Source: a phage. Taken from it: a stretch of 486 bases of DNA. Each line of letters starts with the position of its first letter. Position 1 is the first letter of the stretch. Made by a program: the position numbers and the translations under genes. The stretch is taken from the sequence record EF517056.1, one strand, 5' to 3'. The notes beneath the pieces are model-generated. The model saw nothing but the letters and a program-made list of their open reading frames with translations, made no database searches and was not told where the DNA came from. Below, piece by piece: positions 154-486 of the stretch.

Positions 154-423
154 ATGTCTAACGTAGCTGAAACTATCCGTCTATCCGATACAGCTGATCA
201 GTGGAACCGTCGAGTCCACATCAACGTTCGCAACGGTAAGGCGACTATGGTTTACCGCTGGAAGGACTCTAAGTCCTCTAAGAATCACACTCAGCGTATG
301 ACGTTGACAGATGAGCAAGCACTGCGTCTGATCAATGCGCTTACCAAAGCTGCCGTGACAGCAATTCATGAAGCTAGTCGCGTCAATGAAGCTATGACTA
401 TCCTCGACAAGATTGATAACTAA
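154..423 (+). CDS. 4.5: T7 gene 4.5 protein homolog (89 aa), small non-structural accessory protein
   Basis: ATG 154 to TAA 421..423 gives 89 aa: MSNVAETIRLSDTADQWNRRVHINVRNGKATMVYRWKDSKSSKNHTQRMTLTDEQALRLINALTKAAVTAIHEASRVNEAMTILDKIDN. Good SD 9 nt upstream. I recognise this protein as T7 gp4.5 (89 aa) from memory; length and flanking layout agree. The ORF-track version (61..423) begins at an in-frame GTG that overlaps the upstream gene and has no SD, so ATG 154 is the better start. Confidence 0.9.
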   Translation: MSNVAETIRLSDTADQWNRRVHINVRNGKATMVYRWKDSKSSKNHTQRMTLTDEQALRLINALTKAAVTAIHEASRVNEAMTILDKIDN

Positions 424-436
424 GAGTGATATCCTC

Positions 437-459
437 AAGGTCGCCAAAGTGGTGGCCTT
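437..459 (+). other. RNA stem-loop in the gene 4.5 to promoter spacer; candidate RNase III processing site (T7 R4.7 position)
   Basis: AAGGUCGCCA (437..446) pairs with UGGUGGCCUU (450..459) around an AAG loop (447..449): 10 bp including two G-U wobbles (441-455, 443-453). It lies 14 nt after the gp4.5 stop and just before the promoter, where T7 has RNase III site R4.7 by my recollection. No U-tract follows, so it is not a typical intrinsic terminator. Confidence 0.45.
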
Positions 460-467
460 CATGAATA

Positions 468-486
468 CTATTCGACTCACTATAAG
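468..486 (+). promoter_or_regulatory. T7-RNA-polymerase-type promoter, phi4.7-like class II promoter, 3'-truncated by the window end
   Basis: CGACTCACTATA at 473..484 is identical to positions -12..-1 of the T7 consensus TAATACGACTCACTATAGGGAGA. The upstream specificity region reads CTATT (468..472) instead of TAATA, and the predicted +1 (485) is A followed by G. Position corresponds to T7 phi4.7 by recalled genome layout. Only 2 nt past -1 are visible. Confidence 0.85.

Follow-up and report, generated by a model that had tools for sequence, protein, structure and literature searches.

What is a short hairpin doing between a phage gene and the promoter that follows it, and does it act as RNA or as DNA? 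We have examined this question for the hairpin at positions 437–459 of the window, by which we mean the whole stretch of 486 nucleotides analyzed here (record EF517056.1). A search of a phage collection returned 149 phage records, every T7 record included, and identified the window as phage T7 13431–13916, with 98.3% identity over a match to 13431–13914. The alignment with V01146 showed nine differences and no indels, and T7 coordinates are obtained by adding 13430 to the window position. On the + strand the window carries the last part of gene 4.3 (to 133), gene 4.5 (154–423, 89 codons plus stop, T7 13584–13853), which is the cistron upstream of the hairpin, and positions -17 to +2 of the T7 RNA polymerase promoter φ4.7 (468–486), the remainder of which lies beyond the window. 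The T7 promoter annotation, mapped by alignment, places the +1 of φ4.7 at window 485 (T7 13915), leaving a spacer of 61 nt between the gene 4.5 stop and the φ4.7 start.

Two minor features accompany this arrangement. The homologue of gp4.5 is called 'inhibitor of toxin/antitoxin system' in several phage records. An antisense ORF of 99 codons with a GTG start (181–480, - strand) covers gene 4.5 and the hairpin, and it is most likely mechanical since T7 has no genes on the - strand (PMC6938266).

The hairpin and the larger fold that contains it

On the + strand the hairpin reads AAGGUCGCCA-AAG-UGGUGGCCUU, with the 5' arm of the stem at 437–446, the terminal loop AAG at 447–449 and the 3' arm at 450–459. 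It has 10 pairs closed by a 3-nt loop and only two wobbles, U441·G455 and G443·U453, exactly the position, pairs and wobbles described in the sequence-only reading. Folded alone as RNA it reached -13.2 kcal/mol (z = -4.52), a value that none of 200 shuffles matched. The same reading had proposed to fold 420–475 against shuffled controls. As RNA this segment gave -16.9 kcal/mol (z -2.5) when the + strand was folded; for the - strand the value was -11.7 (z -1.0), and its stem was interrupted at both A·C/C·A positions. With DNA parameters the + strand hairpin was weak (-5.6) and the - strand had none (-2.5, z -0.9). These values bear out the claim that the hairpin is strand-specific and would make a poor cruciform in DNA.

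The hairpin does not stand alone, however, but forms the upper stem of a larger element spanning 424–473 on the + strand. Both the minimum free energy (MFE) fold and RNAalifold place below it a 4-nt/5-nt internal loop and a 9-bp lower stem that pairs 424–432 with 465–473. The 5' arm of the lower stem, GAGUGAUAU (424–432), begins immediately past the gene 4.5 stop and its 3' arm is AUACUAUUC (465–473). The loop is formed by CCUC on the 5' side (433–436), of which CUC is nearly invariant, and by CAUGA on the 3' side (460–464), within which the putative single cut, between U462 and G463, would fall. The gene 4.5 stop (423) and the φ4.7 start (485) flank the whole element, which is therefore intercistronic. 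With the wild-type T7 sequence these 56 nt folded to -23.1 kcal/mol (z -5.27), with none of 200 shuffles as good. All 9 bp of the lower stem form there; in the window A429·C468 is a mismatch and 8 bp remain.

In the MFE fold of 420–475 from the window itself, the second helix, below an internal loop, joins 424–433 with 463–473. The sequence-only reading had found just weak pairing in the flanks (425–428 with 466–469) and had for that reason hesitated over an RNase III substrate, which it expected to have a longer interrupted stem. That pairing was in the wrong register; on the window sequence the conserved lower-stem register gives -16.6 kcal/mol versus -14.1 for the register proposed then, and the interrupted stem that was missed is the one at 424–473.

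A G+C-rich intergenic stem-loop directly upstream of a promoter could also be read as a signal that makes T7 or host RNA polymerase terminate or pause before it reaches φ4.7. But the 3' flank of the stem, CAUGAAUAC, has no U-run, and T7 has a single terminator for its own polymerase, located after gene 10 (PMC6938266), so that we consider this explanation extremely unlikely. A scan of the window for terminators and sigma-70 promoters found none of either, and with the U-run missing and the scan empty, an intrinsic or T7 class I terminator is excluded.

R4.7 in T7 and its relatives

The R-sites of T7 are textbook RNase III substrates, and Dunn and Studier are said to have described ten of them in 1983, R4.7 included, together with the genome sequence. 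We have compared the element with what public records annotate at the equivalent place, using a sensitive search with window 395–486 that returned 265 phage records. In Yersinia phage Y a misc_feature, 'single-stranded RNA cleavage site; R4.7', maps to window 424–472, and in T3 (NC_003298, X17255) and T7M a stem_loop of 49 nt falls on window 424–473, labelled 'RNase III recognition site R4.7' or 'structure R4.7'. RNase III features were absent from the displayed feature tables of V01146 (whole), NC_001604, AY264774, GU071091, phiA1122 and EcoDS1. A scan against Rfam with E up to 10 produced three chance-level matches to snoRNA or lncRNA families (E 4–9, 12–14 bits versus gathering scores of 40–75), and evidently Rfam has no family for the T7 R-sites.

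The hairpin 437–459 is identical (100%) to T7 13867–13889 and orthologous to these annotated features. Judged by sequence and position, the element 424–473 is R4.7, an ordinary RNase III site already known since 1983. The sequence-only reading had suggested RNase III processing 'as at T7 R4.7', and the processing part of this proposal is supported, but the window had not been recognised as T7 and the element is R4.7 itself rather than something resembling it. As R4.7 has long been known, the discovery value is small; what can be said is that a strand-specific, RNA-level RNase III signal had been inferred correctly from the sequence alone. The 424–473 segment equals T7 13854–13903 save for G429A, and the φ4.7 promoter beside it differs from that of T7 by G485A at +1.

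For the comparative analysis we took the sequence 3' of gene 4.5 in 24 IMG/VR contigs, identified by a gp4.5 protein search, and in phage records, obtaining 20 distinct orthologues. Without any guidance RNAalifold returned the same two helices. Standard pairs filled 95.8% of the cells, and 8 of the 19 pairs tested (5 of the 9 in the lower stem) had changed on both sides. Neither value was reached by any of 500 shuffles, and sliding the partner by 1–3 columns reduced the paired fraction to 33–58%. The individual replacements include U441·G455 to C-G in one orthologue, G443·U453 to G-C in two relatives (one of them the Salmonella phage Vi06) and to A-U in two others, the G429-C468 pair of T7 to A-U in T3-type sequences and A438-U458 to G-C in Vi06. 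Such substitutions preserve pairing in the RNA of the + strand, which matches the argument that had been made from the wobbles. The element is conserved across several genera of Studiervirinae, with compensatory changes.

Short hairpins are common in any sequence, and this one might in principle have arisen by chance and have no function. Against that stand the z-scores, -4.5 when the hairpin is folded alone and -5.3 for the complete element of wild-type T7, and the conservation just described; the shuffles together with the comparative covariation refute a chance hairpin, leaving it a negligible probability.

In 10 of the 20 orthologues the upper stem lacks its tenth pair, A446-U450, which by this comparison is specific to T7. 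The conserved upper stem is therefore of 9 bp, and, the 446–450 pair being absent, the terminal loop has 4–5 nt in most relatives. The T3-type R4.7, for instance, has a 9-bp upper stem and a 4-nt loop where the window and T7 have a loop of 3 nt. In T3, T7M and Yersinia phage Y the site is found at the same place, directly 3' of gene 4.5, with the same helices and internal loop. Unlike in T7, gene 5 follows the T3-type site directly, gene 4.7 and the φ4.7 promoter being absent. Gene 4.5 and the gene for DNA polymerase flank R4.7 in T3-like, Erwinia and Serratia phages, and neither gene 4.7 nor φ4.7 is annotated there.

These comparisons also bear on whether the repeat could be a site in the DNA, either a cruciform or a palindromic protein-binding site tied to the promoter or to replication. 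An imperfect inverted repeat adjoining a promoter would fit such a role. However, the complementary strand has A·C and C·A in place of the wobbles and is unfolded as RNA or DNA; the substitutions found in relatives keep the RNA pairing, including the replacement of G·U by G-C or by A-U; T3-like phages retain the element without the adjacent promoter; and all the significant matches of the covariance model in T7 (see below) are on the transcribed strand. We regard a DNA-level site as vanishingly improbable.

The R-site family and the proposed cleavage of R4.7

The internal-loop motif CCUUNAUGA is common to R4.7 and three other T7 sites, and the T7 genome contains the pattern AAGG-N(8-30)-CCTTNATGA 4 times, when 0.15 occurrences would be expected. 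We built a covariance model from the 20 orthologues and ran it unfiltered over the whole T7 genome. Eight matches were obtained at E<0.005, all on the + strand, at 851–906, 1426–1484, 3099–3154, 5846–5903, 6406–6458, 13852–13908, 18500–18579 and 36815–36872. R4.7 and other T7 R-sites have in common a conserved core, CUCAAGG...CCUU-N-AUGA. The base located 16 nt before the end of each full-length match is the U of the loop 'AU|GA' or its aligned equivalent, and falls at 890, 1468, 3138, 5887, 6448, 13892, 18563 and 36856, positions that we take to be, in the same order, R0.3, R0.5, R1, R1.1, R1.3, R4.7, R6.5 and R18.5. The coordinate 13892, which corresponds to window 462, is presumably the R4.7 cut of the V01146 record and of Dunn & Studier 1983. 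That all eight matches put these coordinates at one model position supports both the assignment of the sites and the putative cut at 462|463. We infer this bond from the GenBank coordinate 13892, from the geometry of a 2-nt overhang and from the model position common to the eight matches.

Two other sites, R3.8 and R13, were not recovered by the covariance model in T7. The regions where they presumably lie (T7 11165–11235 and 27245–27315) fold into hairpins of unrelated sequence, and therefore the ten T7 sites are not one sequence family.

The model was also applied to 100 IMG/VR loci, which came from a broad pattern scan that included many unrelated contigs and were used only after filtering by the model; it gave 65 matches, 59 of them distinct. 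Among these 59 T7-like members 95.6% of the cells were paired and 15 of 18 pairs were compensatory, figures that are somewhat biased towards the structure, given that the loci had been chosen by a pattern fixing the first upper-stem pairs and the alignment was fitted to the model. As an isolated case, Pectobacterium phage DU_PP_II (locus 143–198) has a near-identical upper stem and loop core upstream of its DNA ligase gene. This is the position of R1.3 and not that 3' of gene 4.5, and paralogous sites may be as similar to each other as orthologous ones.

The model substrate of RNase III is T7 R1.1, which has 'an asymmetric (4 nt/5 nt) internal loop' and one primary cut (PMC6121014). The covariance model recognizes R1.1 with 50.1 bits (E 1e-10). 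As in R4.7, the loop separates two helices, and the core CUCAAGGUC...GGCCUU-N-AUGA is identical in both sites, including a U·G wobble at the fifth pair. They differ in the distal-box pairs (A-U and U·G in R1.1, G·U and C-G in R4.7), in the terminal loop (GCAA versus AAG), in the loop pair at the scissile bond (U·C versus C·C) and in the sequence of the lower stem.

We have transferred the R1.1 numbering to R4.7 by a mapping inferred from the text of PMC1540722. In that work G-C or C-G at position 2 of the proximal box is a binding antideterminant and at position 4, by the scissile bond, a catalytic one. By alignment to R1.1, position 2 of R4.7 is A438-U458 and position 4 is C436·C460, without any inhibitory G-C pair. 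The distal-box position, about 11 bp from the cut and with UA/UG as its optimal sequence, corresponds in the same numbering to G443·U453 and C444-G452. Every distal-box substitution lowered the reactivity of the minimal μR1.1 substrate (PMC1540722), and a review describes the distal box as lacking conserved sequence among substrates (PMC3867540). In the 59 family members the R1.1 form, A-U/U·G, was the commonest and that of R4.7, G·U/C-G, the second. For the helix from the cut to the loop, 11 bp is the minimum for good reactivity (PMC1540722).

The fifth-pair wobble is a more peculiar case. U441·G455, equivalent to U12:G27 of R1.1 by the inferred numbering, is kept in 19 of the 20 orthologues and in 50 of the 59 family members. 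Replacing the wobble by G·U or G-C in the minimal R1.1 substrate slightly raises cleavage (PMC1540722), and because the mutants are cleaved slightly better the rate of cleavage does not explain its conservation. Possible roles would be setting the rank of the site in a hierarchy of reactivity, enforcing a single cut or making the strand specificity strict. A tentative reading, with the chances clearly against it, is that U441·G455 has been selected for something beyond cleavage rate and that, in the window, G429A may partly disable R4.7.

One member of the group departs from the rules derived from R1.1. The R4.7 of phage Vi06 (locus 669–725) carries A438G together with U458C, that is, a G-C pair at the equivalent of proximal-box position 2, where G-C or C-G strongly inhibits the binding of RNase III to μR1.1 (PMC1540722). 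Its sequence suggests that the Vi06 site may be weak, or that the position-2 rule may depend on the context.

Taking these data together, the hairpin 437–459 is almost certainly the upper stem of the T7 R4.7 processing signal at 424–473, which would be cut once by RNase III. T7 transcripts are polycistronic, and the host RNase III cuts them at ten sites including R4.7 (PMC6938266). The dependence of R4.7 on RNase III goes back to Dunn & Studier 1983, as cited in 10.1101/106799 and PMC6938266, and the former describes R4.7 as a strong site with the same citation. Polycistronic class II transcripts from upstream T7 promoters would read through gene 4.5, and their RNA would fold into two roughly coaxial helices, the lower of 9 bp and the upper of 9–10 bp, with the 4-nt/5-nt loop between them. 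Host RNase III would bind 424–473 as a pseudo-duplex of roughly two turns and make one cut on the 3' side of the loop, at U462|G463 (T7 13892|13893), since the loop would let only one strand engage the catalytic site; internal loops are described as confining cleavage to one strand (PMC3867540). The upstream product would carry gene 4.5, gene 4.3 and the cistrons before them, and its last bases would be the hairpin followed by CAU-3'OH; at the 3' end of the gene 4.5 message the hairpin would be a barrier to 3' exonucleases. The 5' end of the downstream product would be G463, 34 nt before gene 4.7.

Two further proposals of the sequence-only reading agree with this scheme. One was a function of the + strand RNA in RNase III processing, 3'-end protection or both, which the identity with R4.7 supports, the cleavage itself being known from the literature. 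The other was that transcripts initiated at the promoter would lack the structure. Those started at φ4.7 (+1 at 485) would never carry the element, because 485 is downstream of all of 424–473.

A role restricted to protection deserves separate consideration: the hairpin would then only stabilise the 3' end of the gene 4.5 message or shield it from exonucleases, and no endonuclease would process the RNA. The upper hairpin is stable alone (-13.2 kcal/mol, as given above) and stays dominant even when the lower stem is weakened, and 3' hairpins, such as those that result from RNase III cleavage, are known stability determinants (PMC3867540). But there is no terminator at the site to make a 3' end, and as transcription runs on into genes 4.7 and 5 the gene 4.5 message needs a cut to acquire one. 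Besides, a plain barrier would not need the conservation and covariation of the lower stem and the internal loop, and public records label the element as an RNase III site. We therefore find a pure stabiliser very unlikely, and retain the processing signal as the function of the element.

Changes specific to the window

The nine differences between the window and T7 are at window 57, 89, 145, 198, 331, 376, 397, 429 and 485. On the + strand seven are G-to-A and two are C-to-T. They include four missense changes, D46N in gp4.3 and V60I, G75S and A82T in gp4.5, and at 145 the Shine-Dalgarno sequence of gene 4.5 goes from GGAG to GGAA, an A shared with one of 17 relatives. Five of the nine alleles occurred in none of the 17 close relatives, and another three each differed from 16 of the 17. 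Neither the G429A context nor the exact gp4.5 protein of the window was found in IMG/VR, in metagenome contigs or in the protein collection searched. In its composition this spectrum of mutations looks like the product of chemical or deaminase mutagenesis, or of artificial alteration, rather than natural divergence.

The change within the element, G429A (429, + strand), is specific to the window and converts G429-C468 into an A·C mismatch, the only non-standard pairing found at that pair among the 20 orthologues. It costs 6.2 kcal/mol. When the element was folded in contexts of 107 nt and 187 nt, the pair probability of the lower stem fell from 0.99 to about 0.1 with G429A, and that of the upper hairpin with the mutation was 0.86–0.92. 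With the lower stem made marginal, thermodynamics predicts that the R4.7 of the window may be processed less well than that of T7. If G429A did partly disable R4.7, it would provide a ready-made in vivo test of the contribution of the lower stem.

The change at 485 makes the +1 of φ4.7 an A in the window, versus G in T7. Among 17 T7 promoters an A at the annotated +1 was found only in φOL and φ2.5, and initiation at φ4.7 may be altered by this replacement. Provided that the genome is real, the region of genes 4.5–4.7 may be expressed differently from the wild type by virtue of the mismatch in R4.7, the change at +1 of φ4.7 and the weakened ribosome-binding site of gene 4.5.

The promoter and the processing signal also overlap physically. 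Positions -17 to -12 of φ4.7 (window 468–473) also form part of the lower stem, in its 3' arm, and the three positions at which φ4.7 deviates from the T7 promoter consensus, -17, -16 and -13, are all within this arm, a coincidence that suggests a dual constraint on 468–473.
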